A stretch of 32,000 nt of DNA from Candidatus Kuenenia stuttgartensis. Its GTDB lineage: Bacteria > Planctomycetota > Brocadiia > Brocadiales > Brocadiaceae. This document shows, in pieces, positions 6,582 to 30,047 of the stretch. The notes beneath the pieces are model-generated. The model was not told the DNA's origin and did not search any database. It saw only the letters and a program-made list of their open reading frames with translations. How positions within the stretch are numbered: the stretch's first letter is position 1; each line of letters starts with the position of its first letter. The stretch lies in NCBI RefSeq assembly GCF_900232105.1, contig NZ_LT934425.1, forward strand, positions 3,420,001 to 3,452,000, given 5' to 3'. Both the position numbers and the translations under genes were made by a program.

Positions 6582-6618
6582 CCGATGACAGGGGTATTAA
6601 AAAACTCAAAGATATAGG

Positions 6619-7104: not shown

Positions 7105-7122
7105 AACCCGGAGAGATGATTA

Positions 7123-12702: not shown

Positions 12703-12987
12703 ATGTCGGTAACTGTGCGCATACCAACGCCTTTGAGAACCTTTACGGATGGAGTTGAGGAGGTAAAGGTAGAGGGAAAGAATATTGGCGAGATTATTAG
12801 CAATCTGGAAGCAAATTACAAAGGTATTAAAGAAAGGATTTGCGATGATTCCGGCCAGATAAGAAGGTTTATCAACTTTTATCTCAATGATGAGGATATC
12901 AGATTTCTCAATAATCTGGAAACACCGGTAAAAGACGGAGATTATATATCTGTAGTGCCAGCCATTGCCGGTGGCTGTCAGCTATAG
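12703..12987 (+). CDS. MoaD/ThiS-family ubiquitin-like sulfur-carrier protein with a C-terminal extension after the Gly-Gly
   Basis: 94 aa. Begins MSVTVRIPTPLRTFTDGVEEVKVEG and ends ..GDYISVVPAIAGG-CQL. It has the size and C-terminal xxxGG of the family followed by 3 extra residues. An AAGGAG RBS lies upstream. Confidence 0.8.
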   Translation: MSVTVRIPTPLRTFTDGVEEVKVEGKNIGEIISNLEANYKGIKERICDDSGQIRRFINFYLNDEDIRFLNNLETPVKDGDYISVVPAIAGGCQL

Positions 12988-13281: not shown

Positions 13282-14751
13282 TCAGCATTGAATTTTTGGC
13301 TTCACATCAGAACCTCTTAGCAAATATTTTAAAAACGTCCTTGCTGATTTTAACGTCCTCTTTATTTCTCTTGGGTGTGTAATCATTTGTTTTAATTTGT
13401 AAAGAAGATAGCCAGGCCTTAGATAAAAAGACCGTCTTGCACCATCGCAGAACCTTACAAGATCATAGGATGATAATTCTTCCGTACTGATAACAGTATT
13501 ATGCAAGCCTTCCGGCGTAAGCCACTCTGAGAAATTATCGGTAGTTATCAATCTTTTTTCCTTATACCATGTGTATGCTTCCGTTCCCGGATATACCATG
13601 ACGGGATAAAATTGGGCAGTATCCGGATTCAGCCTTTTTGCAAGCTGTAGTGTTTCCTGAAGTGTTTCTTTTGTCTCGCCGGGAAGCCCTGCCATAAAGC
13701 AGCCATGTATTAACATCCCGGCTTTTTTTGCATTTGCCATGAAAGCCTCCATTTCCGCAAGACTCAGCTTTTTCTTCATGTTGTCAAGTACTTGCTGGCT
13801 TCCGCTTTCAAATCCGACGCAAAGTGACCGGCAGCCTGCCGTCTTCATTGTCCGCATTGTTTCGTAATCCAGACCAACCCTTGCATTTGCTGTCCATGAA
13901 ATGTTCACTTTCTTTTGAATTATGCATTCTGCAAGTTCTTTACACCGTTTTTTATTAACAGTTAATGTATCATCCTCAAAAAAAACCGCCTTTGCCTGCG
14001 GGAAATTTTTTGTAATATATTCCATTTCCTCCACTACATTATTAATACTCCTTTGCCGAAAACCTCTGCCCATTAACGTTTGAGGATAAACACAAAAGGT
14101 ACATGGGAAAGGGCATCCTCTGGAAGTGGTAATTGTGACCATTGGGTAGAGGGCGTTAGGATTAAAATAATTTTCTATACGGAGAAATTCTTTGTAAACC
14201 TTGCTTACGAAAGGCAATTCGTTGAGATTTTCAATATATGGCCTTCCCGGGTTGTGGATGATTTCATTGCCATTCCTATAGCTTATGCCACGAACGGTTT
14301 TCAGGTCGCCTTTTTCAGATAAAATTTTAGCGAGGTCATGCAGTGTGTAATCATATTCATTTCTGGCAACTGCATCAACGCTATTTTCTTTGTTAAGGAC
14401 TTCCTCCGGAAGCGCTGATACGTGCGTTCCTACCAGTATTATGAAAGAAGACGGACAGGTTTCTTTTAATCTGCGGGCAACGGCAACGTCATTATCAATA
14501 CTTGGCGTACTTGTATCAAGAACAATAAGGTTTGGCTGGAATGTGAGGGTTTTTTCAATAATGTCATCAATGGATAAACTATCTGCAGGCGCGTCCACGA
14601 GGTTAACTTCAAACCCTTTTTCTTCCAAAACGCCTGTTGCATATGCCAGCCACAGGGGAAAATAGAGCGTGCCGCTTTTGGTCACTGCAGGACTCCGCTG
14701 TGGACGGGAAAATTTTTTTAAATATGGGGGATTGATAAGTAAGACTTTCAC
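13282..14751 (-). CDS. B12-binding-domain radical SAM protein (class B; HpnJ-like architecture)
   Basis: 489 aa. The N-terminus is a Rossmann-like B12-binding region (VLLINPP...LVDAP...LIVLDTSTPS). The radical SAM cluster motif is TSRGCPFPCTFCVYP, followed by CVGFESGS. Confidence 0.85.
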   Translation of the reverse strand: MKVLLINPPYLKKFSRPQRSPAVTKSGTLYFPLWLAYATGVLEEKGFEVNLVDAPADSLSIDDIIEKTLTFQPNLIVLDTSTPSIDNDVAVARRLKETCPSSFIILVGTHVSALPEEVLNKENSVDAVARNEYDYTLHDLAKILSEKGDLKTVRGISYRNGNEIIHNPGRPYIENLNELPFVSKVYKEFLRIENYFNPNALYPMVTITTSRGCPFPCTFCVYPQTLMGRGFRQRSINNVVEEMEYITKNFPQAKAVFFEDDTLTVNKKRCKELAECIIQKKVNISWTANARVGLDYETMRTMKTAGCRSLCVGFESGSQQVLDNMKKKLSLAEMEAFMANAKKAGMLIHGCFMAGLPGETKETLQETLQLAKRLNPDTAQFYPVMVYPGTEAYTWYKEKRLITTDNFSEWLTPEGLHNTVISTEELSSYDLVRFCDGARRSFYLRPGYLLYKLKQMITHPREIKRTLKSARTFLKYLLRGSDVKPKIQC

Positions 14752-14771
14752 TGCATCTGCCTTTCTAAAAA

Positions 14772-15866
14772 TTAAATTCTTTGTTGTTGTGTACCAACGA
14801 AACGAATAACATTTTCATAATTAAAGTTTTTACTTAATAGCGATTTACATTCTTTGTAAACATCATTTGCAGAAATGTTTTCCATGCAAATAGGATTTGC
14901 ACACCCGATAAAAATATCATTTCCATAACACGGACTGCATTCTACACGGCTTTGAATATATCTGCAAAATGGCAATTGGGGTGAAAGTAATTTTGAATTG
15001 CTGGGACCAAAAATACACACTGTCGGGATAGTGAGTGCGTAAGAAATGTGGAAGGGAGCAGAGTCATTTGTAACAAAAAGCCGGCACAATTTCATTAAAT
15101 ATCCCGTTTCATTAAAAGAATATTGGCCGCTTAAATCAAAAATAGCATCATTAAGTTCATCTTTTAGTGTCGTGTTTATTTTACGATCATCCATCGATCC
15201 AAAAAGCAGAAATCCATAACCGTCTGCAGAAAGCAATTTTGCCAGTTCAATAAATTTTTTAGCACCCCATTGTTTTATCAATACCGTATCGCGGGGATTT
15301 TTCCCGCCGCCGCAAAAAAGTCCAATTACATTAGATTTGTATTTTTCGAGAAAAGTACTCAGATTTTCAGGAATGCATACTTCTTTTATCTGAAAATCAA
15401 GCTTAGTTCCATTGCATGGTATGCACAATGGCTCTAACAATGTATTATATGCTCTGGCGGCATAATCGTTTTGTAGCACTGAAGGACAGATTTTGTGGGT
15501 AATAAAACTGCTATTGCCGAATCCGACCCTCGTTGTCGCCCCTATTAACCATGAAAGAAAATGTATATATTTTGATGCGCTGAAAATAATGATAGCTTCA
15601 AATTTGTATTTTCTTAATTCTAGTATTAAAGGGATAATTTTATATAATTTTTTTCCAAAAAGTGCATCGTCGTCTAATCGAAAAGTTTTTGTAAGGTAAG
15701 GATTATTGTACAGTGCTTCTGACGACCACCTACCGGTAAGATAATAAATCTTATTTGCCGGGTTATTTTTGTAAATTGCATGTATTGCCGGAGTCGTAAG
15801 CAATACATCACCGAAAGCATGGGTCTTGATTAATAAAATATTACTACTCATCTGCTTTGCTGCCAT
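14772..15866 (-). CDS. Glycosyltransferase family 9 (ADP-heptose:acceptor heptosyltransferase-like)
   Basis: 364 aa. Reads NILLIKTHAFGDVLLTTPAIHAIYKNNP (the GT9 N-terminal signature), then FCGGGKNP..KQW and TNDSAPFHISYAL (the GT9 C-terminal motif). Confidence 0.8.
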   Translation of the reverse strand: MAAKQMSSNILLIKTHAFGDVLLTTPAIHAIYKNNPANKIYYLTGRWSSEALYNNPYLTKTFRLDDDALFGKKLYKIIPLILELRKYKFEAIIIFSASKYIHFLSWLIGATTRVGFGNSSFITHKICPSVLQNDYAARAYNTLLEPLCIPCNGTKLDFQIKEVCIPENLSTFLEKYKSNVIGLFCGGGKNPRDTVLIKQWGAKKFIELAKLLSADGYGFLLFGSMDDRKINTTLKDELNDAIFDLSGQYSFNETGYLMKLCRLFVTNDSAPFHISYALTIPTVCIFGPSNSKLLSPQLPFCRYIQSRVECSPCYGNDIFIGCANPICMENISANDVYKECKSLLSKNFNYENVIRFVGTQQQRI

Positions 15867-15948
15867 TCATCATAACGTTTAATGGCAGCATCCCTAGCCA
15901 CTCGTCCTAAAACTATTCCTGCAGGTTTCCGGAGAAAACAGGAAAATA

Positions 15949-17391
15949 TTATTCTATCGCCCACGTATCAGCCTTTCTCTTTAACAGTCTTTTTATTGAA
16001 TCACTCATGAAGTATAAAAAATTGACTATGTATTTGTGCTTCATTGTTTTTAGCATTGGTTTGGATACGAGTATCCACATGATCCGTCGTGGAATGGTAC
16101 GGCAATAGAGATAAAAAAGAAAGTTAATATAACTCTTTTTTCGGGATTCAAATTGCCGGGTCGAGTCAATGATAAGTCCTTTTTCCTGAGCCTTTTTTTG
16201 TAATTCAGTGCCAGGAAGAAAAATAAGGGAAAATACGTTCAGGTGATATGGTCTGGGAAATTTCTGAATCATATGCAGGGTTTCAATTAGGTCTTCTTCC
16301 TCTTCGAATGGATTATCAATAATAAAATCGTAGAAAGGCATTAATCTTCCCTTAAATTGGTGAATCAGTCCTACAGCATCCAAAACTTTGTCGGTAGAAG
16401 GGCCTCTTTTATACAGTTTTCTGGTTTTTTCACTACCTGTTTGTATGCCAATTTGCAATTCATTCATGCCTGCATTAACAAGGATTTCCAGCTTCTTTTT
16501 ATTGACATCATGTGCATGGGCAAGACAGCGGAAAGGCAAACCGATTTCATTTCTATATAAAGCGGCATATTTTTCTAACTGGTCTTCTTTCAAAGCAAAA
16601 AAATTGTCGTCGCAAAACGTTATTGCCTGCATCCGTGGAAAGCGGAATTTCATTTCTTTCAGCTCACCAATTACGTTTTCTGCAGTGCGAAATCTCAAAT
16701 ATCCGCTGTCCGAATAAAGGGCTTTAAATGTGGAACAATAAGTACAGCTATAAGGGCATCCTCGTGAAGAAAGGGTTTGATAAACGGTTTTCTCCGCTAT
16801 TTTTAAATGCGCCTGCAATAATTCCCCGGTCATTTTGTGCATGGTTTTTCCATCCCACAGGTAATGCCCCTCCAAAGAATAATCGGGGTATGGCAATGAA
16901 TCAAGATCTTCAATAATAGGGGCAAGCCTGTTTTTTTTGAAATTTCCGTCTTTGAAAAACCAAAATCCGTTCAAGTCGTAATAATTATCGTTTTTTGCCA
17001 TGGCGTTTAAAAGGTTTTTTATTGCGATTTCTGCTTCACCTATGCAGACAATATCGGCAAAGCCTGCCGCATCTTCCGGCCTGGCAGAGATATGCTTTCC
17101 TCCCCACATTATAGGCGCCCTTATTTTGTTTCGTATTGCTTCGGTAAGCGCCTTAACCGCATTGAAATGACAAGAGAAAAATGATATTCCCACAAAGAAT
17201 GAATCATGGGTCATCTCTTTTATAGCATCCGATAATAAGCTTATAGAATGGGTATCCATCTGTTTTAAGATATGGGGCGTAAAAATAATTTCGGTGGAAA
17301 ACCCTTCTTTTCTCAAAGATGATGAAAGGATTCTAATGCCATATGCCATTAAATCATCGTATGGTGCGATAAAGGTGACTTTTTTGTTCAT
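15949..17391 (-). CDS. B12-binding-domain radical SAM protein (second copy, divergent)
   Basis: 480 aa. Has an N-terminal B12-like domain and the cluster motif SSRGCPYSCTYCS, with IGIQTGS downstream. Confidence 0.8.
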   Translation of the reverse strand: MNKKVTFIAPYDDLMAYGIRILSSSLRKEGFSTEIIFTPHILKQMDTHSISLLSDAIKEMTHDSFFVGISFFSCHFNAVKALTEAIRNKIRAPIMWGGKHISARPEDAAGFADIVCIGEAEIAIKNLLNAMAKNDNYYDLNGFWFFKDGNFKKNRLAPIIEDLDSLPYPDYSLEGHYLWDGKTMHKMTGELLQAHLKIAEKTVYQTLSSRGCPYSCTYCSTFKALYSDSGYLRFRTAENVIGELKEMKFRFPRMQAITFCDDNFFALKEDQLEKYAALYRNEIGLPFRCLAHAHDVNKKKLEILVNAGMNELQIGIQTGSEKTRKLYKRGPSTDKVLDAVGLIHQFKGRLMPFYDFIIDNPFEEEEDLIETLHMIQKFPRPYHLNVFSLIFLPGTELQKKAQEKGLIIDSTRQFESRKKSYINFLFYLYCRTIPRRIMWILVSKPMLKTMKHKYIVNFLYFMSDSIKRLLKRKADTWAIE

Positions 17392-17618
17392 GGTGAGAAA
17401 ATACCTCCCGGTATATAGATATTAATCATAGTCAGACAATTAAGGTTTTCGAAAAATGAATAGTTGTAAATTTTAAATAAAATTCATTGTTTTTATAGAG
17501 TAAGGAGTTTTTTCTAATTTAACCCCCCCAAATCCACTCCTAATAAATGGGGCTTCTTACTGTTAGATTTGTTATTTCTAACAATTTTTTATTTTACCAG
17601 GGCTTTGTCCTGATTGAT

Positions 17619-17648
17619 AATCAATCAATCAATCAATCAATCAATCAA
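17619..17648. repeat. Tetranucleotide microsatellite (AATC)7.5, i.e. (TTGA)n on the minus strand, covering the stop codon of the acyltransferase gene
   Basis: 17619-17648 is aatc x7 plus aa. It is preceded by tgattgat (17611-17618), which forms an inverted repeat with the tract. The last codons of ORF 17641..18588 (GTT GAT TGA) lie inside the tract. Confidence 0.9.
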
Positions 17649-18588
17649 CAATAATACTACCGATGTGGGGTGGCTCGGTTTTGTTTTTATATAAATACCA
17701 GAGGTAGTGACTGGGATGTTCTTTGACGAACTGTTCCATTAAACTGCCAAACTTTAAGACGACAAGTTTTTCCGGTGTACCTTTATCATTGCCATCGTCG
17801 GGGATGATTTCATTGCCTATAATAATGCGGTGTTTACCGTTTTTTCCCCTTACCGTAAAAACAGGCAATATTGGGGACTTTGTTCTTTCTGCTATTTTTA
17901 TAAGGGAGGGGGATAGACGTATCTTCCTTCCTAAAAAAGGTACTGAAATTCTATTAGGGTCCAAAATTCCATCAAGTGACATAACAAGTATTTCGTTATT
18001 TTGTAACACACGGTATATTTGCCTTGGAGTGCTTCCTATGTAAAAAAAATTGGCGGGCAGGCTTTTTTCACATTGATATTCAATTTGCATGGTTTTATTC
18101 TTTACCATCGACTTGTCTTTGCCGGTCAGATCGATAGGATTTGCGGCAACCTGCGTTATTTTATATCCTTTATACCCCAGGCAGGGGAGTATCATTTTAT
18201 ATGACCCAAAATGGCAAAGCGCAATTATCACGCCCTTACCTTTTTTCAAGGCGTTCTCTAAATGTTCCATACCGGTAATGGTGCAAAGTTCTTCGGCCTT
18301 CTTTTTATTTAATCTTGGGAATGACCATATTTCAAAGAGATCTTTTCTGAAATTACGAAGGGTTTCCAGGATGATTTCTTTCATTTCCGGGCTGGTAAAT
18401 GTTCCTTTGCCAAATAACAATTCCAGCTCACCCTTCATGACTACAGCTTTTTCTCCATGTGACGTCAGCGCTGCAAGGCAGTTGGCAAGGCTATGTTTTA
18501 ATTTTAAAGGCAAGTAAGGTATTGTGTATCGAAGGGTATATAAAAAAAACACCTTTGCCGCTTCAGAAAAATGAATAGTTCCTTTCAT
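17641..18588 (-). CDS. LpxL/HtrB-family (lipid A biosynthesis-type) acyltransferase-like protein
   Basis: 315 aa. Size and layout fit the family: an N-terminal hydrophobic segment, KGKGVIIALCHFGSYKM at the position of the HX4D/E motif, then MSLDGILDP...VPFLGR. Motif recognition only. Confidence 0.6.
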   Translation of the reverse strand: MKGTIHFSEAAKVFFLYTLRYTIPYLPLKLKHSLANCLAALTSHGEKAVVMKGELELLFGKGTFTSPEMKEIILETLRNFRKDLFEIWSFPRLNKKKAEELCTITGMEHLENALKKGKGVIIALCHFGSYKMILPCLGYKGYKITQVAANPIDLTGKDKSMVKNKTMQIEYQCEKSLPANFFYIGSTPRQIYRVLQNNEILVMSLDGILDPNRISVPFLGRKIRLSPSLIKIAERTKSPILPVFTVRGKNGKHRIIIGNEIIPDDGNDKGTPEKLVVLKFGSLMEQFVKEHPSHYLWYLYKNKTEPPHIGSIIVD

Positions 18589-18645
18589 AAATATTTTATG
18601 ATTAAAAGTTATTTTGAATAGGAGAGAATATATTTCTGTTAATAA

Positions 18646-20751
18646 CTAAATTTGGTTAATTATTATTACTGTTTTAGATGTTTTTAGATGTTTGAATCTG
18701 CCGAAAGCCTCCTCGATTGTTTCTTTAGAAGTTTTATGTAGTTTTGCTGTTAAAAGGACAACATTTGCCGTTGCAGAGAGAAACAGGGTGTCGTTACAGG
18801 CAATAACAGGGTCGGCATCAATAATAATATGTTCATAGTCAAGATTGTTTAACTGTTCTGGCAGTCCATCGATCATGGCAATAGCCGGGATATCGGTAAT
18901 TTCTTTCATAAGTAAAACATCAATGCCATAGATATCATTGCTTCTTATAAGGTCTTTAAGGGTTATTTTTTTATCCACCGGAAGAATATCTTTTCCCTGC
19001 AAATGCCAATCATCTGTTGAAGAAATATCAAGGAAGAGGGTTTTTTTGCCGGAAACGGCTAATTCTCTTGCCACCAGAAGAGCGAGTGTAGAGGTTCCTA
19101 CTTCCTCCTCCGCTCCGGTGAAAAGAATTGACCGTGCAATGGTATCGCCTGAAACGACCTTTATGCCGGAAATAATGTTCCAGACGGAACGTCTGATGGT
19201 GTTGTTTTTCAATACTTTTCTGACAAAATTTCGCTGTTTAAGCAATAACAGTTCATCTCTTAATGTAGGGAAATAACGAAGCAGTCTTTTCGGGATAATG
19301 TTGAAGCCAAATATCTTTTTATACCTTGGCAAACCATAGAGCAGATTTCCCTGAAAGGCCTTTTGTGCTTCTGCAAGCGTTTTTATAGATTTGTCGACAG
19401 ATTCTTCCAGAAGGATTATTGAAAATGCTATGATAGTACTAAGAAACATGGAGATAGCTAAAAATTTTACCCTGTTCGGAAAATAAGGAGAAGAAATTGT
19501 TGATGCATCTGCGTAATTAAGGACGGCCAAGTTTGAAGGGCTCATGTTTAGCAATATTTCGGCGTCTGAAATGCCCTTTGTCAAGTTTGTGTACTCGGTA
19601 TTTAAAGAAGATTGCTGACGTTCTATTTTATTAAACAATAGTTCTATTTTCTTTACATTGAGCATTTTTTTGTAAATGATATCGGTTATATTAAGCAGTA
19701 TCGCGTCAGTTATTTTATAAATTTCCAGGTTTATTTTTGTATCATAATAACGTTTTTCCAATTCAGCATAATACGAGTTTCTGGAAAAATTTTCGTCTCC
19801 CAAAATTCGTTCTATTTCTTTATGTATTGCCTTTTTATATTCTGCTATTTGCATTCTGGACGCAACAATATCGGGGTGTGCTTCGGTAAAGTCAACCTTC
19901 AGTTTAGCAATAGTCGTTTCAAGTGTTACGATTTCCTGTTTATATGTTTCTAATGTAGGATTTCTTTCGATAGCCTTGCTGGATAAATATAGTTCCGGAA
20001 TTAATGTAATAGTTTTGGTTACCTCTTCTAACACCTTTTTCTCTTCTTCCATTGTTTTAGTATTTTGATGAACCAGGTCAAGATAGCTGTAATATTGCTT
20101 GAGTCCCTCTTCTATTTCCATGGTGACATCAATAATTCCGTATTTTTTCCTGTATCTGTACAACCTTCTTTCCAGTTTTCTTAATTCTTTATTTACGTAC
20201 GCTAGCCGCACTTTCATTGCTTTTTGTGCCAATCTTGCCTCGTCTTTGAAAATATCCGCATAAAGTATCATAAACGCGTCAACCGCAGCATTCGCAACAT
20301 TCCCTGCCCGTTCAGGAGTGGAGGAGTATCCAGATACTTCTATAACGTCACCGCTTTCTACTACGTCAACACTAATCCCTTCCCTGCTGAAAAAAAGATT
20401 AAATTCACTTCCGATGATAAATTTATCAGGATCAACCAACCGTTCCTTTTCATCGGTAATATGCAAGGTTGAAATAATCCTTTTCATGGATTTAGGATTT
20501 TTTAGCATTGCAAAGAATGTGTTATCCAGTTTATTTTTGTCAGAATATTCGAACTTGCTAATGTTTGTTGGTAATGCAAGATATTGCGTTTGTGTTGCAT
20601 TTGTATGCATCCAGAGCTGCGAAGAGGCCTTGTATACCGATCGGAAAGAAAGGGATAACAATAGTGGCAGTAATGTGAAGGCGAGCACAATAACGATAAT
20701 AATTTTCTTTCTTCTGGAGATAACATCAAGAAATTGTTTTAAGAGCGACAT
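18646..20751 (-). CDS. Polysaccharide co-polymerase (Wzc/GumC/EpsG-like) with a degenerate C-terminal P-loop domain
   Basis: 701 aa. Has an N-terminal TM segment (IIIVIVLAFTLLPLLLSL), a long coiled-coil periplasmic region and a second TM (FLAISMFLSTIIAFSIILL). The CpsD/BY-kinase-like domain has Walker A GAEEEVGTST (no Lys), FLDISSTDD, and Walker B-like HIIIDADP. There is no Tyr-rich tail. Confidence 0.75.
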   Translation of the reverse strand: MSLLKQFLDVISRRKKIIIVIVLAFTLLPLLLSLSFRSVYKASSQLWMHTNATQTQYLALPTNISKFEYSDKNKLDNTFFAMLKNPKSMKRIISTLHITDEKERLVDPDKFIIGSEFNLFFSREGISVDVVESGDVIEVSGYSSTPERAGNVANAAVDAFMILYADIFKDEARLAQKAMKVRLAYVNKELRKLERRLYRYRKKYGIIDVTMEIEEGLKQYYSYLDLVHQNTKTMEEEKKVLEEVTKTITLIPELYLSSKAIERNPTLETYKQEIVTLETTIAKLKVDFTEAHPDIVASRMQIAEYKKAIHKEIERILGDENFSRNSYYAELEKRYYDTKINLEIYKITDAILLNITDIIYKKMLNVKKIELLFNKIERQQSSLNTEYTNLTKGISDAEILLNMSPSNLAVLNYADASTISSPYFPNRVKFLAISMFLSTIIAFSIILLEESVDKSIKTLAEAQKAFQGNLLYGLPRYKKIFGFNIIPKRLLRYFPTLRDELLLLKQRNFVRKVLKNNTIRRSVWNIISGIKVVSGDTIARSILFTGAEEEVGTSTLALLVARELAVSGKKTLFLDISSTDDWHLQGKDILPVDKKITLKDLIRSNDIYGIDVLLMKEITDIPAIAMIDGLPEQLNNLDYEHIIIDADPVIACNDTLFLSATANVVLLTAKLHKTSKETIEEAFGRFKHLKTSKTVIIINQI

Positions 20752-22181
20752 TTTAGGGTATCCAATCTTTCGTTTTCTAATCTTTTATTGTTTTCACGGT
20801 CAATTACAATTGCCATGGCATGTCCGATTCCTAAATAAAACCATAAGGGCAAAAAGGTATGGGAAAAAGAGGTGACTGCATTAAGCAGTAATGTTGCTAA
20901 GCCTGAAATGTAAATTTGCATCCATTTTTTGTATTCGGATGAAATACAGGCAAGGTATGCATGGATAAACCTCTTGCAAGAGAGTACCAAAAACCAAAGC
21001 CACAATAACACGCCAGGTAATCCATACTCTGCAAATATATGAACATAGAGATTGTCAAAGCTGATTTCCGGGTCGAGATACGAAAAAAATCCGCCAGCCC
21101 CATCACCTAAACCATAATGGTCCTTTATAGAAAGAATACCTTTCTTCCAGCGTTTTATCCTCGAACCGAGAGATGATGATTCATCGGTAGTTTCCGTCGA
21201 TGTTTTAGAGGTGTAATCCAATGCCTTCGCAAAATCATTGGTAGGGATTCTTGATAGAAAAAATCCAATTATGATAAGAGAAAAAATAAGCGTCCATACA
21301 ATGATAATACGCTTGTTGACCGAGGCATTTAAAAGGGAAAAGATATAAAGTCCGCATAGTAATGAAAGTAACGGCCCTTTGCTAAGTGTCGTTAATAGCG
21401 CTACAAACATAGAGAGTACTGCGATTGACAGGAATACCCTGGTGATTTTGTTTCCCGTGTAAATAAATCCGAGCAACAACATGAGCGATAATGAAAGGTA
21501 GTATGCGGTGGCAAGTGGATGCATGAATCCTTGTCCGCGTAACATTTGCTCAGGATTGAATACAAAACGAACCAGATGTTCATTATGATGATACAATATA
21601 TCTTCTATTGTTTTATTCGATAGGAGAGAATAGTAACAAACAATGCTGCTGACAAAACCCATACCAACAAAAAAGGCGATTGCTATTTTGATTTTTAGAA
21701 AACTGTTTAATGTTACTATGGTCAGGAAAAAGAAGCATATGGCGATAAAAAACATTGCCATATAGTATATTCCCATTGTTTTTTCAGTGCTCCAGAGAAT
21801 GGAAATTATTCCCCATAGATATAATAATATCAGCGGGAGATATCTTTTGATCTGAAAGTCTTCAGTTGAAATCCTTAAACCGCGCGATATAAACCAACAG
21901 AGTAAGCAATAAAGTATGAACGGTTCTGAAATAGTGAAAAATGTTCGATAATCGCCCCAGAGCCTGATTTCAATGCTGATATAAGAAGTAAGGAGTATCG
22001 CAAAAAGATACGGAATATGCGGCTTCAAAATAGAAATGGTTGCCACGGAAGTAATGCCGAGCAGGATGAGGGTTACCAGGGGGTTGATAAATGCTGTGGA
22101 AGATATTGCCATGCCAAAAGGGATAACAATAATCCATCGGTAGATGTTTAGTTTTTTATTGTGCGTAAGAGAATAGTTCAT
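20739..22181 (-). CDS. Wzy_C-domain polytopic membrane protein (O-antigen polymerase / ligase / O-oligosaccharyltransferase family)
   Basis: 480 aa with ~10-12 hydrophobic segments. A periplasmic loop is followed by DNLYVHIFAEYGLPGVLLWLWFL, the characteristic Wzy_C/O-antigen-ligase motif. Confidence 0.7.
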   Translation of the reverse strand: MNYSLTHNKKLNIYRWIIVIPFGMAISSTAFINPLVTLILLGITSVATISILKPHIPYLFAILLTSYISIEIRLWGDYRTFFTISEPFILYCLLCWFISRGLRISTEDFQIKRYLPLILLYLWGIISILWSTEKTMGIYYMAMFFIAICFFFLTIVTLNSFLKIKIAIAFFVGMGFVSSIVCYYSLLSNKTIEDILYHHNEHLVRFVFNPEQMLRGQGFMHPLATAYYLSLSLMLLLGFIYTGNKITRVFLSIAVLSMFVALLTTLSKGPLLSLLCGLYIFSLLNASVNKRIIIVWTLIFSLIIIGFFLSRIPTNDFAKALDYTSKTSTETTDESSSLGSRIKRWKKGILSIKDHYGLGDGAGGFFSYLDPEISFDNLYVHIFAEYGLPGVLLWLWFLVLSCKRFIHAYLACISSEYKKWMQIYISGLATLLLNAVTSFSHTFLPLWFYLGIGHAMAIVIDRENNKRLENERLDTLKCRS

Positions 22182-22209
22182 CTATGGTTTATGGTGCAGG
22201 ATACATCAT

Positions 22210-22237
22210 CCCGGCCGTTTTTTTGAAAACGGCCAGG
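22210..22237 (-). other. Strong intercistronic stem-loop between the GH-fusion gene and the Wzy_C gene
   Basis: GGCCGTTTT (22213-22221) pairs with AAAACGGCC (22226-22234): a 9-bp perfect stem with a 4-nt loop, extendable by 2 more pairs. On the minus strand the stem is not followed by a U-tract, so it is not a canonical intrinsic terminator. Confidence 0.5.
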
Positions 22238-22260
22238 ACTATTGTATTTCACAAAGTGGT

Positions 22261-24534
22261 TCAATGTTGTGTTTTATCTGCAAAAGGTTTTTGTAAACGA
22301 CTGATTGAGGCTGCAATTGTTTCAGCTTTTTGCTTAATCTGCTTTATACTGTCAGAATCGATATAATCCAGCCGTTCGGCAACTTGAAGATACGTTTCCA
22401 GTTCTGCAATGGAGCCGTTTGCAATGGAAAGATGATTGAAAAACTCTTTGGGATTTTGCATTGCCTGTCCCTTTGCAATAGTTGCCGGGATTGATGCAGC
22501 AGTGCGTTGTAACTGTCCAGCCAGCGCATCATTTTTCCCCTGCGGAATCTCTTTTGTAAGATTATAGCATTCTACTGCTAAGTCCATTGAGCTTTGCCAC
22601 ACTTCCAAATCGCGATAAGATTTACCGCTAATTGTCGTTGGAAGATTATCAGAGGATTGTCCGCGTTGCGGCGGCATTTGTCCTCCAGGTATAGGCTGTC
22701 CACGATGCGGGCCGTTTCCGGGTTGTCCTCCCATGGCAGGGCCTTTAGGCTGCATCGGACGTCCGCCCGTTGGCGACTGTCCATATCCACCTGGCATTTG
22801 TGGGGTTTTTCCTGTCGGTGGTTGTTCTTTGCTATCCACAATCTCAGAGACGGATGATTCATCGTCATCATCTATTTCATCTGATACATATTCCGTATCG
22901 CCACTCTTTTTGCCCTCGACGAACACGGGGGTGGAAGATATTTCCACCGGAAGGGTTTTTCCTGAAGATATCAGAGTCTTTGTGTTAAAAATATTTTTTG
23001 ATGCAGAGTGTAGCTGTTTTCCTTCAGAGACATTTGGTATCGCTTCCGTTACTGTATATTTGCTGTTTTCTGCGACTTTCAAGTCTATTGTCGTTTTCCC
23101 GTTTTCTTTTTCGTACCATAGCACATAAACGTCTTTCTCTGCCTGTGGGAATTTATATGCGTATATGCCGTTTTTGCCATTAGAGATTGCCGCTACATTG
23201 TTCCAATCTGAATTTTTAAGTTTTTCCGTCATTAGCCTGTAGGTATAGAATCCGAGTTTTTTCACTCCATATCCAGGATCGCCGGCGCAATTGCCGTCAT
23301 ATATCAAACCGGTGTATTCAAACATTGATTCACAATCAAATGGTGGCCAGCCTTCCACAAGCGCCCATGCCCAGAATACTTTTTTAATGCCATAACTGAG
23401 TGGATAGACATACCGTTTTATCACCTGAATTGCCTGACCCTTTTCTCCCTCTTTACTGCTGGCGCCCGTTTCGGTCATCCATACGTCAACATTAGTCAAG
23501 CCGCTTTCATCGAGGGCATTGCGTAATATTTTATAGGTGGTATAAGAATCTATAATGCTGTCGTCAAACCAGTGGAAATCAAATATATCGATAGAATCCT
23601 TGTCAAGCGCTCTAATTACCGGAAGCCAAAACTCATTTAATATTTCAGTCCTCATTTTTGGCGGTGGACTTACTATTCCACCACTAAGTACCTTTGCGTT
23701 TTTGTCTGCGCTTTTTATTGCGCTTGAAGTGATATTGATGAGTTCCACATATCCCTTCCATTCACTTCCTTTTTGGGTTTGACCGCCCATCCTGTCAGAG
23801 CCAGGTGGTTGCCCCCTTTGTCCGCCCATAAAGCCGGGTCCCTGTGGTCCGCCTCTTTGACCCATTCCAGGCGGTGGTCCACCTTGTCTTCCGGCGCCTG
23901 CCCCTTGTCCGCCAGCTCCAGGTCCACCACCTTGCTTCTTTTTAACCTGAATAACGGGTTCATTTTCAACCTGCCAGTATTTTACAGGATTTTTGAGCCC
24001 CGGCATATCGTCTTTGCCGTCTCCATCATATCGTTCTACAGCTTTTTTTACGAATTCTATGTAAGCCTCTTTTGCCTGTGGAACAATAAACTCCCATGTG
24101 CCAGGCCGTAACAGCTTTGTGTTAACATTAATGGTAACAACAATGTTCATTTCTTCAGGAATTCTCTTTAAAAAATTATCAGGGATCGTCCAGTTGTATT
24201 TTCCCTGTTGAATAGATTCTTTATCCCTCTGCACAAAAGACCAGTCTAAAACGGGGTTTGACTGACGTTCCCATTTAACACCAAGTTCTATTGCGGTTGA
24301 ATAAGGCGGATTATCTCCCGTGATGCCGTCAAATTCGAAATTCTTTCTTTTTGCCAGCATTTCCTCATTGCTTTTTCTTTTTGGTGGATAAAAGGAGGTG
24401 GTAAATCCAAAAGGAGAATCGAGAGCCGCCTCGTCCCATGCATGAACAATTGATCCCTCGAAAAAACCGAAAGAGAATATCAGCAGAAGTGTCGTTATAC
24501 TGCAAATAAATCGCTGTGTTTTTTGCAACATCAT
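22261..24534 (-). CDS. Secreted clan GH-A-like glycoside hydrolase with two G/P/Q/M-rich low-complexity inserts, fused to a C-terminal four-helix-bundle (23S rRNA IVS / Avd-like) domain
   Basis: 757 aa. Has a signal peptide (FICSITTLLLIFSFGFFEGSIVHA), the acid/base motif YWQVENEP (res 187-193) and the nucleophile motif VWMTETG (res 351-357). Low-complexity runs cover res ~198-256 and ~570-629, with an acidic run DEIDDDDE. Residues ~638-745 read SYRDLEVWQSSMDLAVECYNLTKEIP...QLQRTAASIPATIAKG...KEFFNHLSIANGSIAELETYLQVAERLDYI, matching the four-helix-bundle family pattern. Confidence 0.75.
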   Translation of the reverse strand: MMLQKTQRFICSITTLLLIFSFGFFEGSIVHAWDEAALDSPFGFTTSFYPPKRKSNEEMLAKRKNFEFDGITGDNPPYSTAIELGVKWERQSNPVLDWSFVQRDKESIQQGKYNWTIPDNFLKRIPEEMNIVVTINVNTKLLRPGTWEFIVPQAKEAYIEFVKKAVERYDGDGKDDMPGLKNPVKYWQVENEPVIQVKKKQGGGPGAGGQGAGAGRQGGPPPGMGQRGGPQGPGFMGGQRGQPPGSDRMGGQTQKGSEWKGYVELINITSSAIKSADKNAKVLSGGIVSPPPKMRTEILNEFWLPVIRALDKDSIDIFDFHWFDDSIIDSYTTYKILRNALDESGLTNVDVWMTETGASSKEGEKGQAIQVIKRYVYPLSYGIKKVFWAWALVEGWPPFDCESMFEYTGLIYDGNCAGDPGYGVKKLGFYTYRLMTEKLKNSDWNNVAAISNGKNGIYAYKFPQAEKDVYVLWYEKENGKTTIDLKVAENSKYTVTEAIPNVSEGKQLHSASKNIFNTKTLISSGKTLPVEISSTPVFVEGKKSGDTEYVSDEIDDDDESSVSEIVDSKEQPPTGKTPQMPGGYGQSPTGGRPMQPKGPAMGGQPGNGPHRGQPIPGGQMPPQRGQSSDNLPTTISGKSYRDLEVWQSSMDLAVECYNLTKEIPQGKNDALAGQLQRTAASIPATIAKGQAMQNPKEFFNHLSIANGSIAELETYLQVAERLDYIDSDSIKQIKQKAETIAASISRLQKPFADKTQH

Positions 24535-25907: not shown

Positions 25908-25953
25908 AAAAGGAATTTTTTTATATTATTCAAGTGATAGTTAACAGGGAAAT

Positions 25954-27555
25954 TTAATCGAAATAGCCAAGGTCCGTAAGCCGTTCTGCGATCTTTTGGC
26001 TGTCTTCATCGGAATAAACATCTTCATCTTCCGCTGCAAATGCACACGCTTTATCATCGTATTTCGCTGATTTTTCAGCAAGGAACTCTTCGGTAAATAT
26101 CTCATTTAAAATTCTTCCGTCTATAGAATTTGGCACAGTAACATCCATTGTGTAAAGTACGGTAGGCAAAAGATCGATGATTTCAGCCTTCATGTTTGTA
26201 ATGCCCTTTTTTACATGGGGAGATTTGTATACGAATATTCCATTCGGCGCATGATCTCCACACAATTGTTTGTAAGGTTGAATGACGCCGTGTCTCCCTC
26301 CGGATCTCAGTTTTTCGTAAAGAGTTTTTATGCTGTTATATTTCTCATTCCACATGATGATGAGATCCGGCGCCTTATCTAAATATTCACCGTAAAAAAC
26401 CTCCTCTTTCCTGAAAATAGTTTTAATTACAGGTTTTCCATTTTCAGGATCGGCAAGAAGACTCAGCTTACGTATGATTTCTTCCCTTATTGATTCATAC
26501 TCTTCCCCAAGGCTTACAATGCCATAGGGTTCTTTTCCTTTTACATTGATAAAAATGTTTCCCCATGTACCGAGGAAATAGGCGCGTGTTTTTGACCAGT
26601 CAATATAGTGGTCAAACAGGATTTTATCCGCTTTTTTCAGATACCTTCTTTTTAACCTCTTATAGAAATCTTTTATTTTTAAAACAGGAGATTCTTTCTT
26701 TAAAACAAGGAACCCGTTTTCAAGCAACCATCGGTTTACATCAACGCTTTTATATATTCCATGCATGCCGTGATCGGACATGGCAATAATGCTCGTTGAT
26801 TCGTCTACCTTATCCAGGAGCCTGCCAATAGCATCGTCAACCCTTTTGTAAATAGTATATATAGCATTCTCCGTCCCTGGGGAATATCCAGGGTGTTTTT
26901 TGTCGTAATATCTCCAAAAAGAATGCTGCACCCTGTCTGTTGCAGTAAATACAACCATAAAAAAATCAACCGGGTATTTTTCCATCATGTAGAGGGCCGT
27001 CTTTTCCCGCGCCTCTATCATGTCAATCATATGAGCAATATATTTTCCAGGGTTGTTCATTAAAGCCGGGTTGTGCTCCATATCAACAATATAATTACCT
27101 ATTGCCGCCTTTAATTCGTTTTTTAATGCTCCGGGATAGGTAAATTCGCTGTTTGTATCCGGTGTATCTAAACCGGAAATCATAAACCCGTTAACCTTAT
27201 CAGGCGGGTATGTGCCTGGAATATTTATTATTGTTGTTGTATAGCCTTCCTGATTAAGATACCGCCAGATAGGCTGCGCTTTGCAATGGGTTCTGTTCAT
27301 GAAATGAATACTTTGGTCTGTTTTCGATTTTTCTATAAAATCAAATATCCCATGTTTCCCTGGATTTACGCCGGTAAAGAAAGAAGGCCATGCTACAGGA
27401 CTTACCGGCGGTACAGAAGATTCCAGGACGCCGGAACACCCATTGTCTATCAATGATTTTAAATGCGGCAACCTTCCCTGTTCCAGCCATGGGGCAACAA
27501 TATCAAAAGTTGCGCCGTCAATGCCTATTACAAAAACCTTTTCATTATTCTTCAT
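25954..27555 (-). CDS. Alkaline-phosphatase-superfamily protein (type I phosphodiesterase / nucleotide pyrophosphatase family)
   Basis: 533 aa. Reads VFVIGIDGATFDIVAPWLEQGRLPHLKSL, VPPVSPVAWPSFFTGVNPGKHGIFDF (metal/nucleophile region) and MSDHGM. No signal peptide is evident. Confidence 0.75.
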   Translation of the reverse strand: MKNNEKVFVIGIDGATFDIVAPWLEQGRLPHLKSLIDNGCSGVLESSVPPVSPVAWPSFFTGVNPGKHGIFDFIEKSKTDQSIHFMNRTHCKAQPIWRYLNQEGYTTTIINIPGTYPPDKVNGFMISGLDTPDTNSEFTYPGALKNELKAAIGNYIVDMEHNPALMNNPGKYIAHMIDMIEAREKTALYMMEKYPVDFFMVVFTATDRVQHSFWRYYDKKHPGYSPGTENAIYTIYKRVDDAIGRLLDKVDESTSIIAMSDHGMHGIYKSVDVNRWLLENGFLVLKKESPVLKIKDFYKRLKRRYLKKADKILFDHYIDWSKTRAYFLGTWGNIFINVKGKEPYGIVSLGEEYESIREEIIRKLSLLADPENGKPVIKTIFRKEEVFYGEYLDKAPDLIIMWNEKYNSIKTLYEKLRSGGRHGVIQPYKQLCGDHAPNGIFVYKSPHVKKGITNMKAEIIDLLPTVLYTMDVTVPNSIDGRILNEIFTEEFLAEKSAKYDDKACAFAAEDEDVYSDEDSQKIAERLTDLGYFD

Positions 27556-27598
27556 AAAATACCTTTACGAGTTTGAAACTGCATAAAATACTTTTGCG

Positions 27599-27627
27599 TT
27601 GCATGGTAAATAAATAATTGCTATAAA
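27599..27627 (+). promoter_or_regulatory. Candidate sigma70-type promoter for the flippase gene (weak call)
   Basis: TTGCAT (27599-27604), a 17-nt spacer, then TATAAA (27622-27627), ~160 nt upstream of the 27789 ATG in the divergent intergenic region. Such matches arise easily by chance in AT-rich DNA. Confidence 0.2.
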
Positions 27628-27788
27628 GCTTAAAAGTCAAACGGCAATCCGTAACAGATACTGTTTTTAGCAGATATTTTTTTACTTTTGGAGATGTACT
27701 GTATCTGGATTGTATGAAGCGGCGAATATAACACAATTCCCAAAGACATTCCATTTTATATTTACATTTTCAGAATTATAACCAGAAT

Positions 27789-29159
27789 ATGTATCCTGCG
27801 CATATAACTCCCTCCAAAATAATCCATAAATTTATTGCTAAATTAAGCGATATCAATCTGCGTGAACTTCTTAAAAGCGGTTTTGTTTCTTTTGTTTTCA
27901 AGATCTCGGGAATACTGGCTTCTTATTTATTAATGTTGTTAATTACGAGGAAATATGGCGCTCATACCGCAGGGATATTCACCCTTTTTATTACATTTTT
28001 GAATATTTGCACCGTATTGGGCAGGCTTGGAATAGAGACTACATTATTAAGATTTATCGCCGAATATTCTTCTCAAAACAAAAATGCTCTTATTGCCGAT
28101 ATTTATGTGAAAGCGCTGAAAATAATTATTCCCGTTAGTGTTTTTATCAGTATCCTTTTATATTTCCTTTCTCCCTATATTGCCAGAAACCTGTTTAACA
28201 AAACATACCTGTCTGCATATTTTCAGATAGTATCATTCATGATACTTCCAATGGTTATTATCTTTATAAATTCAGAAAGTTTGCGGGCGCTGAAGAAGAT
28301 TAAAGAATACGCATTTTTACAGGACCTGGCCATACCACTTTTTTCAGTGTTCCTACTGGTGATATTTCTCTTTTTCAGCAGAGGGAAATATATGCCGTTT
28401 GCTGCATATGCTGTAAGTATTTCTATGGTATTTTTTCTGTCGGTATTCCTATGGCTGAAGAAATTAAACGTTACTCGTGTGTTACCTGAAGCAGGCATGA
28501 AATACACAACTCTCTTTACTATATCATTGCCTATTTTAATATCGAACTCGTTATGTTTATTTATGGGATGGACGGATAAAATACTGCTTGGCGCTTTTAA
28601 AACGGAAAGTGATGTGGGAATTTACAATGTCGCTTTCAGATTATCAATGCTGGCAAGCATTCCCCTTTTCGCATTTAATAGTATTGCCGCGCCTAAGTTT
28701 GCCCAATTTTATGGGAATGGCGATATTGCATCCCTTGCAAAACTAGCCCGGCAGGTAACAAAACTTATTTTCTGGGTAACAACCCCAATACTGATTATGT
28801 TTTTTGTATTTCCATCATTTTTTCTCAAAATCTTTGGTGAAGAATTTGGGGCAGGGAAAAACGCCTTAATAATGATGACTGCCGGGCAGATGGTAAATAT
28901 CATGTCGGGTCCCGTTGCATATATTTTAAACATGACGGGAAAACAAAAAATTTTCCGTAATATAATGTTTCTGGTAGCAATAATAAATATCACACTCAAT
29001 GTATGGCTTATTCCTAAATATGGTATAAGCGGCACTGCATTTACAAATATGGTGAGTGTTATGCTGTTAAATATCTTGCTCTTTATTGCTGTCAGGTATT
29101 ATTATAAATTCTCTACCTTTTCAATTACCAACGTTTTTAATATAAAGAGAGGGGCATGA
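27789..29159 (+). CDS. Wzx-type polysaccharide flippase (MOP/MATE-like superfamily)
   Basis: 456 aa with ~12 hydrophobic segments, and the size and pattern of the polysaccharide biosynthesis protein family (..GIYNVAFRLS.., ..GISGTAFTNMVS..). Confidence 0.75.
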   Translation: MYPAHITPSKIIHKFIAKLSDINLRELLKSGFVSFVFKISGILASYLLMLLITRKYGAHTAGIFTLFITFLNICTVLGRLGIETTLLRFIAEYSSQNKNALIADIYVKALKIIIPVSVFISILLYFLSPYIARNLFNKTYLSAYFQIVSFMILPMVIIFINSESLRALKKIKEYAFLQDLAIPLFSVFLLVIFLFFSRGKYMPFAAYAVSISMVFFLSVFLWLKKLNVTRVLPEAGMKYTTLFTISLPILISNSLCLFMGWTDKILLGAFKTESDVGIYNVAFRLSMLASIPLFAFNSIAAPKFAQFYGNGDIASLAKLARQVTKLIFWVTTPILIMFFVFPSFFLKIFGEEFGAGKNALIMMTAGQMVNIMSGPVAYILNMTGKQKIFRNIMFLVAIINITLNVWLIPKYGISGTAFTNMVSVMLLNILLFIAVRYYYKFSTFSITNVFNIKRGA

Positions 29160-29201
29160 GTTTCAGAGCAAAAGCTGACAGATTCTGCCACACCCCATAT
29201 T

Positions 29202-30047
29202 TTAGTTCACAGGGATGTTAATTGTGGTTCCGCCGCCAGCATCTGTTTTGCCATGTGTCAATACGTCCTTTACCTGCGGATATAAAATTATACCGCTTTC
29301 AAAACCAATGATAGTGCTGATTATTTGCTGAAAATAAGAAAAATACCTTGCGACGTTTGCGATAACCATTGTTGGCACAAATATTATATCCCCGTGTTCC
29401 AGCATCATATTTTGAGAAAAATCCCCCTTCTTCCACACATCTTTTGTATTTAAGGCGTAAATCGTTGGTTTGCCTTCACCCCGTCTCATTAAAATTACAT
29501 TTTCCAGTTTTGCGTTGCTTGTTGCTCCGCCTGCCCTGGAAATCGCTTCTATAACACTGATGTCCGTATCAAGCACAAAAAATCCAGGAGAATTAACCTC
29601 TCCGATCACGATGGTCTTTTTACTTTGTATGCTGGTAACATTAACCAGTACCTGCGGATCGACAATATAATGGGATAGCCTTTTTTCCAATTGTTCTCTG
29701 AGGTCAAAGGCGCCGACACCGGCAACCTGCACGTCTCCGATTAACGGGAACATGATTTTTCCCGAATTGTTTACCCTTACGGATCTTTGAAGATCGTCAT
29801 GCCGGTAAACGGAGATTTCCACTGAATCGCCTACTCCCAGTATAAACTGGGATATCTTTATCGTATTTAACCGTTCGAATTCTTCACCTTGATCTACAGG
29901 CGCTGCAGGATTTTCGACGACAGGCTTTACCCCTGTGGAGGCGCAACCGTTTAAAAAAACTAAAAGCAAGATGAATGCTGTCAACAGCATCGGAGTGGTG
30001 CATTTTTCTTTGTCATACGTAACTGCACAAGTATTTACCGTTTTCAT
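29202..30047 (-). CDS. Polysaccharide export lipoprotein (Wza-family; Poly_export + SLBB domains)
   Basis: 281 aa. Has a lipobox (LVFLNGCAS), FILGVGDSVEISVY (Poly_export motif), GKIMFPLIGDVQVAG and VIGEVNSPG (SLBB). Confidence 0.8.
   Translation of the reverse strand: MKTVNTCAVTYDKEKCTTPMLLTAFILLLVFLNGCASTGVKPVVENPAAPVDQGEEFERLNTIKISQFILGVGDSVEISVYRHDDLQRSVRVNNSGKIMFPLIGDVQVAGVGAFDLREQLEKRLSHYIVDPQVLVNVTSIQSKKTIVIGEVNSPGFFVLDTDISVIEAISRAGGATSNAKLENVILMRRGEGKPTIYALNTKDVWKKGDFSQNMMLEHGDIIFVPTMVIANVARYFSYFQQIISTIIGFESGIILYPQVKDVLTHGKTDAGGGTTINIPVN

Follow-up and report, generated by a model that had tools for sequence, protein, structure and literature searches.

Several described systems offer a comparison for a gene locus at positions 13282–30047 of a 32,000-nucleotide stretch of the Candidatus Kuenenia stuttgartiensis genome (the whole stretch analyzed is hereafter called the window). 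[quoted passage not shown] Aminoglycosides are tailored by radical SAM enzymes such as AprD4, a sugar 1,2-diol dehydratase acting on paromamine, and the GenK-type class B C-methylases, which belong to actinomycete antibiotic clusters and have soluble pseudo-oligosaccharides as substrates. Capsule and exopolysaccharide (EPS) systems of the Wzx/Wzy type use Wza as the outer-membrane polysaccharide export (OPX) protein and Wzc as a polysaccharide co-polymerase (PCP) of type 2a, and the late steps of lipopolysaccharide (LPS) synthesis involve WaaC/WaaF, LpxL/LpxM and WaaL. The Kuenenia locus, with 11 genes (kustb0202–0211 are genes of this locus), resembles each of these in part. Its sequence relationships lead us to regard it, with moderate confidence, as the Kuenenia version of a widespread, uncharacterized cassette of anaerobic diderms for a surface glycoconjugate, either a glycolipid or a glycan with a lipid anchor, whose sugar or acyl parts would be remodeled by three cobalamin-type radical SAM families, here called A, B and C. 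The product is probably a chemically unusual cell-surface glycan or glycolipid, as judged from the proteins encoded, which are listed here by position and strand.

13282–14751, minus: family A radical SAM enzyme, HpnJ-like and AprD4-like, with a B12 domain; the most conserved gene of the cassette
14772–15866, minus: glycosyltransferase family 9 (GT9) enzyme of a rare subfamily (Glyco_transf_9, PF01075)
15949–17391, minus: family B radical SAM enzyme, B12-binding, with a Radical_SAM_N2-like N-terminus (Pfam)
17641–18588, minus: LpxL/PatA-like acyltransferase (Lip_A_acyltrans, PF03279)
18646–20751, minus: PCP/GumC/Wzc-like co-polymerase whose C-terminal ATPase domain is degenerate (Wzz, marginal)
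20739–22181, minus: Wzy_C-family polytopic membrane protein (Wzy_C)
22261–24534, minus: secreted clan GH-A-like glycoside hydrolase (GH) with a C-terminal 23S_rRNA_IVP domain, 757 amino acids
24531–25907, minus: family C radical SAM enzyme, BzaD/TsrM-like, B12-binding (kustb0209; Pfam and NCBIfam)
25954–27555, minus: cytoplasmic enzyme of the alkaline phosphatase (AlkP) superfamily, first gene of the nine-gene operon (Phosphodiest, PF01663)
27789–29159, plus: Wzx-type (MOP/Polysacc_synt) flippase, 456 amino acids, divergent from the operon (Polysacc_synt/MatE)
29202–30047, minus: Wza-like OPX lipoprotein, 281 amino acids (Poly_export and SLBB)

The case for a cassette is carried by conservation across phyla. 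The three radical SAM families were delimited by all-against-all BLAST of the related loci, which are designated by L-numbers (for example, L166). Family A served as the first anchor; three neighborhoods were compared, followed by 63 genome loci, with the proteins of the window as BLAST queries. Relatives of family A number in the thousands; the best are 69–78% identical and belong to Planctomycetota, Nitrospirota, Deltaproteobacteria and Schekmanbacteria. Proteins 60–78% identical to it are spread over at least six phyla (Brocadiaceae, Nitrospirota, Deltaproteobacteria/Thermodesulfobacteriota, Schekmanbacteria, Eisenbacteria and others). Its neighbors were counted in loci outside Kuenenia only, and the denominators are the loci with enough flanking sequence.

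DUF362/4Fe-4S protein: 49 of 56 loci
GT2 glycosyltransferase: 45 of 56 loci
GT9 glycosyltransferase, within 10 kb: 43 of 52 loci
cytoplasmic molybdenum-bis(pyranopterin guanine dinucleotide) (Mo-bisPGD) enzyme resembling the formate dehydrogenase alpha subunit: 22 of 40 loci
LpxL-like acyltransferase: 19 of 39 loci
family C radical SAM enzyme: 14 of 34 loci
AlkP-family enzyme or sulfatase: 11 of 34 loci
family B radical SAM enzyme: 9 of 34 loci
Wzy_C protein: at least 9 of 34 loci

The GT2, Fe-S and Mo partners of family A are 56–81% identical across phyla. All three radical SAM families occur together in several loci, including L071, L064, L015 and L013. Family C orthologs share 40–51% identity (L024, L064, L071, L166 and L015) and family B orthologs 34–52% (L166, L167, L065, L071, L013, L015 and L011). 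An independent anchor on family B, in a metagenome scan with alignment, recovered the same cassette at identities of at least about 35%, while family B relatives more distant than this lie in unrelated gene contexts. Two of the loci anchored on family B, L089 and L125, carry Wza (55% identity) and PCP genes. Clusters of otherwise unassigned neighbors comprise GT4 enzymes, Polysacc_synt flippases, GDP-mannose dehydratases/epimerases, SGNH/AlgX proteins, methyltransferases, carbamoyltransferases and genes of the 3′-phosphoadenosine 5′-phosphosulfate pathway. In other Brocadiaceae (L024, 7480–9982; L064, 7565–9980), flavin-dependent (FAD) amine-oxidase-like and radical SAM/SPASM proteins lie between DUF362 and family A, so that the cassette carries extra redox enzymes in this family.

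The closest relatives of the Kuenenia GT9 outside the genus come from a Thermodesulfovibrionales metagenome-assembled genome (MAG; L166) and from another MAG (L167). Eight genes of L166, arranged as family C, GH-like, Wzy_C, PCP-like, LpxL-like, family B, GT9 and family A, are collinear with Kuenenia at 47–63% identity. Collinearity of this length with a Nitrospirota MAG places the arrangement far beyond chance. Past family A, L166 continues with an alpha/beta-hydrolase, a GT2 and, further on, the Mo-enzyme, and L167 has the same five-gene block of family B, GT9, family A, hydrolase and GT2. A preliminary description of this DNA, made from the sequence alone, had proposed a locus for glycan or glycolipid assembly and export, and the neighborhoods support it: the three radical SAM families are co-conserved with GT9, LpxL-like, AlkP, Wzy_C and GH genes across phyla. 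A characterized orthologous locus, which would have weakened the proposal, was not found. The literature library searched returned no published study mentioning kustb0202–0209 and no published description of a gene cluster combining B12-binding, radical SAM and heptosyltransferase genes, and KSMBR1_3210, KSMBR1_3211 and KSMBR1_3216 are absent from the supplements to the paper on the MBR1 genome.

The cassette is split in Kuenenia. The operon stops at family A, and genes for ThiS and S-adenosylhomocysteine hydrolase come next. The cassette GT2 (QII14236.1) is found at 4,236,780–4,237,754 of CP049055.1, about 0.8 Mb from the window locus, with genes for a UDP-sugar pyrophosphorylase (UDPGP) and Memo upstream and the Mo-enzyme downstream. 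The same split is present in K. hertensis and in a lake Kuenenia-like lineage, and a tblastn search of the window for leftovers of the GT2, DUF362, Mo-enzyme and hydrolase genes found none. The earlier observation of a single GT9 and no GT2 is thereby correct for the window and incorrect for the pathway, whose GT2 and Mo-enzyme have been relocated; the absence of GT2 from the locus came about by chance, when the genome was rearranged in the genus Kuenenia. The earlier statement that no initiating transferase, GT2/GT4 or nucleotide-sugar genes are seen holds for the window and for 10 kb past its end. The missing genes do not lie in a conventional array just outside; there is no further glycosyltransferase array in this range, the locus has one GT9 only, and the genes past the window end include those for an AMP-ligase, Crp, GlyS and UDP-glucose dehydrogenase.

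Two open reading frames (ORFs) of 518 amino acids, 100% identical to each other and without a Pfam match, bracket the UDPGP–Memo–GT2 block (L165, 4878–6434 and 11163–12719, both on the minus strand). The pair resembles a composite transposon and may explain the split. The transposase in the window was considered as the element flanking the relocated GT2 and rejected, as the two are not the same. In the lake Kuenenia-like lineage (L162, 5378–8939; also L163 and L164), an inserted diversity-generating retroelement separates the cassette GT2 from the Mo-enzyme. It consists of bAvd, a reverse transcriptase and a target protein of the formylglycine-generating enzyme (FGE)-sulfatase type, with a peptidase_C14 gene alongside.

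All three radical SAM proteins contain the Radical_SAM domain (47–80 bits; Pfam cut-off, 29.5) and the B12-binding domain PF02310 (family A, 57.0 bits; family B, 43.0; family C, 57.9; cut-off, 32.1), and their translations contain the cluster motifs CPFPCTFC, CPYSCTYC and CPLKCAYC. The preliminary description treated the three as generic methylases or rearrangers. This does not apply to family A, which is specifically HpnJ-like and AprD4-like, with relatives that rearrange sugars rather than methylate. Its best curated match is HpnJ (TIGR03471), aligned over the full length (residues 1–477 to 1–467 of 472) at 428.2 bits, below the equivalog level of 577.6. Among the ten nearest 50%-cluster representatives, eight match HpnJ at 352–450 bits, again short of the cut-off, whereas the other two give no match to HpnJ at E ≤ 1e-100. 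The GTG start of family A is backed by a conserved N-terminus.

An AlphaFold2 model of family A (predicted local distance difference test, pLDDT, 78) has AprD4 as its nearest solved structure, with a template modeling (TM) score of 0.70. AprD4 is also the nearest solved structure by sequence, followed by TsrM, MgmA, CysS, TokK and OxsB, and the model superposes on AprD4, TsrM, TokK and OxsB. Family A shares the class B architecture of the aminoglycoside enzymes, although its identity to AprD4 is only about 22% and their soluble substrates and antibiotic clusters differ from its own setting. AprD4 is a B12-domain protein that is not known to use cobalamin, and cobalamin binding by family A is therefore not to be assumed. 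Since the characterized relatives, HpnJ and AprD4, act on sugars, sugar remodeling by family A is supported, and its reaction may be a sugar-ring contraction. Calditol synthase (Cds) of Sulfolobus, a radical SAM enzyme proposed to convert a lipid-linked hexose into a cyclopentitol, is likened to family A by description only. An archaeal family A homolog, from Aenigmatarchaeota, adjoins a GT2; the lipid and the organisms differ from those of calditol synthase.

Family C (Radical_SAM, 47.3 bits) matches BzaD at 263.7 bits and the rSAM_ladder_B12 model at 225.2 bits, both below cut-off, and its nearest solved structure is TsrM (6wte). It is probably a C-methyltransferase, as its nearest relatives, BzaD and TsrM, are both methylases. 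Family B (Radical_SAM, 76 bits) has TIGR04013 as its best NCBIfam match, at 107 bits and below cut-off, and no informative relative among its NCBIfam and structure matches.

The genes beside the radical enzymes resemble those of Wzx/Wzy capsule and EPS systems: a Wzx-type flippase, a Wzy_C protein, a PCP-like protein, a Wza-like lipoprotein and a secreted GH. The Wza-like protein matches Poly_export (75 bits) and SLBB_2 (60.7 bits), has a lipobox, LNGC, behind an N-terminal hydrophobic stretch, and has homologs of 41–55% identity within the related cassettes L020, L089 and L125. The flippase (Polysacc_synt, 70 bits; MatE, 51 bits) has about 11 transmembrane segments, and Polysacc_synt flippases recur in nine related loci. 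The Wzy_C protein (49.4 bits; about 12–13 hydrophobic segments) is 53% identical to its L166 ortholog, recurs in at least 13 related loci and has no sequence match in the PDB. The Wzy_C family also takes in WaaL ligases and O-oligosaccharyltransferases of the PglL type, and, as the preliminary description noted, the protein could serve in ligation or O-oligosaccharyl transfer as well as in polymerization. The PCP-like protein is marginal for Wzz (26.2 bits against a cut-off of 25.5) and below cut-off for pepcterm_ChnLen (68.8 bits). It has two transmembrane segments around a long coiled-coil region and is 47% identical to the L166 ortholog; no tyrosine occurs in its last 40 residues, so it lacks the tyrosine-autokinase features of Wzc. 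Unlike a Wzx/Wzy system, the locus has one glycosyltransferase, and three radical SAM enzymes, an LpxL-like protein and an AlkP-family enzyme replace the usual glycosyltransferase array. The most economical reading is a conserved radical core combined with a variable glycan-assembly shell, which in Kuenenia consists of Wzx, Wzy_C, PCP and Wza.

Gene content, domains, operon-like packing, conservation across phyla and the split in Kuenenia are observations; from them we infer a series of chemical steps and their order. In the cytoplasm, the relocated GT2, encoded beside the UDP-sugar pyrophosphorylase, would transfer a hexose or N-acetylhexosamine to a lipid-linked acceptor. Family A would rearrange that sugar, most likely by contracting the ring into a carbocycle, the type of reaction proposed for HpnJ and for calditol synthase. 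GT9 would then add a further sugar, possibly a heptose, the LpxL/PatA-like enzyme would acylate the intermediate, families C and B would C-methylate or otherwise modify unactivated carbons, and the AlkP-family enzyme would handle a phospho-ester step. Simple hydropathy predicts the radical SAM enzymes, GT9, the acyltransferase and the AlkP-family enzyme to be cytoplasmic. Wzx would flip the product, the Wzy_C protein would polymerize or ligate it, the PCP-like and Wza-like proteins would export it and the secreted GH-A enzyme would trim it. The family A–hydrolase–GT2 block of L166 and L167 parallels hpnJ, hpnK and hpnI, which makes a sequence of glycosylation, deacylation and radical rearrangement plausible.

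Several points weigh against this reading. All functional assignments sit below curated equivalog cut-offs, and for HpnJ the ring contraction itself is a genetic inference only (PMC13459092). No initiating phosphoglycosyltransferase is present in the window or in the 10 kb past its end. The Walker A motif of the PCP-like protein is degenerate (GAEEEVGTST, with no lysine, against GxxxxGK[ST]). The neighbor counts depend on the gene used as anchor and come from flanks of at most 10 kb. Finally, the hydrolase, GT2, DUF362 and Mo-enzyme genes are missing from the Kuenenia locus, so the pathway may be altered or partly defunct there.

A narrower proposal, tentative and in our view possible rather than probable, concerns the core of the cassette. 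Family A, together with GT2, the cytoplasmic Mo-bisPGD enzyme and either a hydrolase or a DUF362 Fe-S protein, may install a carbocyclic (cyclitol-type) or otherwise radically rearranged sugar in a surface glycoconjugate, which would be a new anaerobic pathway of sugar remodeling in anammox bacteria, Nitrospirota, Desulfobacterota and candidate phyla. If so, the BHT cyclitol ether of anammox bacteria could also be the work of the same enzyme. Surface glycans and glycolipids of anaerobes and anammox bacteria shape aggregation, granule formation and substrate access. What had been one odd locus is now a defined cross-phylum cassette with a strongly conserved radical enzyme core. It offers enzymologists a new and tractable group of class B radical SAM enzymes, whose substrates are probably carbohydrates, and candidates for two anammox chemistries, the BHT cyclitol ether and unusual S-layer or EPS sugars. 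The compact Thermodesulfovibrionales five-gene block would be a candidate for heterologous expression.

The GT9, LpxL-like and Wzy_C proteins of the operon belong to the classic families of the late steps of LPS synthesis. GT9 scores 75.5 bits for PF01075, and its AlphaFold2 model (pLDDT 92) has a GT-B fold with TM scores of 0.68–0.80 to the GT9 structure 3tov, WaaF and WaaC, and 0.55 to TibC. The LpxL-like protein (PF03279, 80.5 bits; cut-off, 22.3) has LpxM (5kn7) and PatA as its nearest structures. The AlkP-family protein (PF01663, 154.3 bits) has no transmembrane segment and no signal peptide, and a PDB sequence search with it returned nothing; its homologs share 30–47% identity in L028, L035, L049, L052, L073, L081 and L066. 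The locus could on these grounds remodel the LPS inner core and lipid A, with GT9 as a core heptosyltransferase, the LpxL-like protein as a late acyltransferase, Wzy_C as the WaaL ligase, the AlkP-family enzyme acting on phospho groups and the radical SAM enzymes modifying acyl chains or core sugars. LpxL-like genes are often duplicated beside family B and C radical SAM genes in related loci, which hints at acyl-chain chemistry, and a PMT_2/ArnT-like gene occurs in some loci.

We nevertheless consider LPS remodeling unlikely. The GT9, LpxL-like and Wzy_C proteins fall far below the LPS equivalog cut-offs. For GT9, the best scores against the heptosyltransferase II/III equivalogs are 98.6 bits against a cut-off of 170.2 and 93.9 bits against one of 134.6, and for the LpxL-like protein the best score against the NCBIfam lipid A acyltransferases is 69 bits against 248. 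The LpxL-like subfamily retains invariant H126-F-G, D206 and E285 and lacks the acidic residue of the HX4(D/E) motif, the residue at H+5 being K, L, F, Q or H in 14 homologs. The GT9 subfamily, with 53 relatives at E ≤ 1e-10, has an additional motif of four invariant cysteines in its C-terminal part (C310, C313, C322 and C327). Moreover, the presence of Wzx, Wza, the PCP-like protein and a secreted GH suggests export of a separate polymer, and ordinary LPS genes are reported elsewhere in Kuenenia in the literature. The earlier description of the product as heptose-containing is unproven, since GT9 falls below every heptosyltransferase equivalog cut-off, though its fold is WaaF/WaaC-like.

The HpnJ match of family A raises a second alternative, in which family A and the distant GT2 would make BHT cyclitol ether by an anaerobic or anammox route, the glycan genes being mere neighbors or enzymes of the same lipid. 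Enrichments of Kuenenia, Brocadia and Scalindua contained this ether together with BHT and squalene (bioRxiv 10.1101/2019.12.15.873869); it might stem from other community members. A genome survey did not place Planctomycetota among the phyla in which C35 hopanoid modification (HpnGHIJK) is commonest, leaving a gap (PMC12324291). In the relatives, family A is translationally coupled to the hydrolase and GT2, and the block of L166 and L167 mirrors the hpnJ/hpnK/hpnI logic of glycosyltransferase, deacylase and radical ring contraction. This route is nonetheless improbable. The HpnJ scores of family A and of its nearest cluster representatives are sub-threshold, and the cassette GT2 has no HpnI match. 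The cassette hydrolase is of the alpha/beta or NodB-like type, whereas the HpnK hydrolase is YdjC-like. None of shc, hpnH, hpnI and hpnK occurs in the window, and neither these nor hpnG are among the recurrent neighbors in about 80 cassette loci; glycan genes recur instead, with GT9 near family A at the frequency given above. The cassette genes stand amid GT9, LpxL, Wzy_C, Wzx and Wza genes and are accompanied by the DUF362 Fe-S protein and the Mo-bisPGD enzyme, unlike those of the hopanoid system.

The Kuenenia S-layer protein carries homogeneous heptose chains, and ADP- and GDP-heptose pools are present while the heptosyltransferase is unidentified (bioRxiv 10.1101/2020.12.03.409086). The single GT9 of rare subtype might build these "O-type" oligo-heptose chains iteratively, with Wzx as the flippase and Wzy_C as the O-oligosaccharyltransferase that its PglL-type relatives suggest. 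We regard this as very unlikely. Plain heptose chains need no three radical SAM enzymes, acyltransferase or AlkP-family enzyme, and the nearest GT9 relatives are in the Thermodesulfovibrionales radical SAM cassette rather than in Brocadia sinica or Ignavibacteria. Papers on the S-layer glycan do not name a gene cluster for it. Direct protein heptosylation by GT9, of the BAHT/TibC type, was down-weighted, because the fold is nearer to the LPS enzymes WaaF and WaaC than to the protein heptosyltransferase TibC. Synthesis of ladderanes or other membrane lipids, in which the B12 radical SAM enzymes would act on the fatty-acyl chains of core lipids, is scarcely credible: the organism makes ladderanes and family C matches the ladderane-associated "lipid biosynthesis B12-binding/radical SAM" model, but at 225 bits against a cut-off of 360, the neighbors are glycan genes, the published candidates are Kuste2803 and Kuste3335–3352, and the cassette occurs in many non-anammox phyla.

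Returning to the surface glycoconjugate cassette, the hydrolase at 22261–24534 was earlier described as secreted and GH-A-like, to which an IVP domain and two G/P/Q inserts, unmentioned there, are now added. A signal peptide is present. Neither Pfam GH families nor the PDB give a direct match for the Kuenenia protein itself, and BLASTP shows no similarity to the GH39 of L013; GH-A status is suggested instead by two glutamates, E192 (NEP) and E355 (TET), that are invariant across 12 homologs, and by the matches of the homologs, present in at least 12 loci, to GH42, GH5, GH53, GH39 and Glyco_hydro_cc. A low-complexity G/P/Q insert (residues 194–257) comes straight after the NEP catalytic motif, and a second G/P/Q linker (residues 560–640) joins the GH-A-like part to a bAvd-like 23S_rRNA_IVP four-helix bundle (residues 641–745; 102.8 bits). 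The fusion of hydrolase and bundle is kept in three Kuenenia species and absent from all homologs outside the genus. This region explains a local rise in GC content to 0.44, and Tandem Repeats Finder reported nothing in the G/P/Q region.

The packing of the locus is operon-like. Nine minus-strand genes run co-directionally from 27555 down to 13282. An ATGA overlap at 24531–24534, preceded by AGGAGG, and a 13-nt overlap at 20739–20751 were both confirmed in the sequence. The remaining intergenic gaps are 20–82 nt, with the sole exception of 249 nt at 17392–17640. On the minus strand, this gap opens with a (TTGA)n microsatellite (about 17615–17645) that overlaps the stop codon of the LpxL-like gene and lies upstream of the family B gene. 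It has seven copies in the window and six to eight across Kuenenia assemblies (L001–L006), making it a strain-variable spacer. A tblastn search of the gap found no sulfatase remnant, promoter-like sites in a sequence scan were at background (65 against 55.7 ± 8.6), and a terminator scan gave no informative minus-strand terminator within the operon. All 11 ORFs, their domains, the CxxxCxxC motifs and both overlaps lie where the preliminary description placed them, and in profile hidden Markov model searches the named domains score above the Pfam gathering thresholds. Alternative gene calls have slightly shorter starts, with 455 amino acids for the third radical SAM protein and 359 for GT9. The locus proteins include CAJ70948.1 (GT9) and CAJ70954.1 (kustb0209), and the corresponding locus tags are KSMBR1_321x and KsCSTR_3887–3895.

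Other genes flank the locus in the window. At 10964–12987 on the plus strand, an S-adenosylhomocysteine hydrolase gene and a ThiS-like gene adjoin the end of the SAM-consuming operon. This pairing is found in K. stuttgartiensis assemblies, in a second Kuenenia species (L017) and in the lake lineage (L019), and was not seen outside the genus; its association with the operon may be coincidence. On the other side, directly upstream of the Wza-like gene, a Zn-dependent alcohol dehydrogenase gene overlaps the end of an AMP-binding gene of the acyl-AMP ligase type by 4 nt (30333–31933, minus strand). No homolog of the dehydrogenase was found in related cassettes, where the ligase was not searched for. 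A group II intron lies at 1521–3037 on the plus strand, with a maturase ORF (1521–2819; RVT_1 and GIIM) and a match to the Rfam family Intron_gpII (2885–3037; 46.3 bits). An ORF at 2816–3958 overlaps it, has no Pfam match and may be an interrupted host gene. A DDE transposase (4643–6379, minus strand), a ResIII helicase (7123–8211) and an endonuclease-like ORF (8205–9830) follow, and the region 4643–9830 looks like a mobile or restriction-type island beside the locus.

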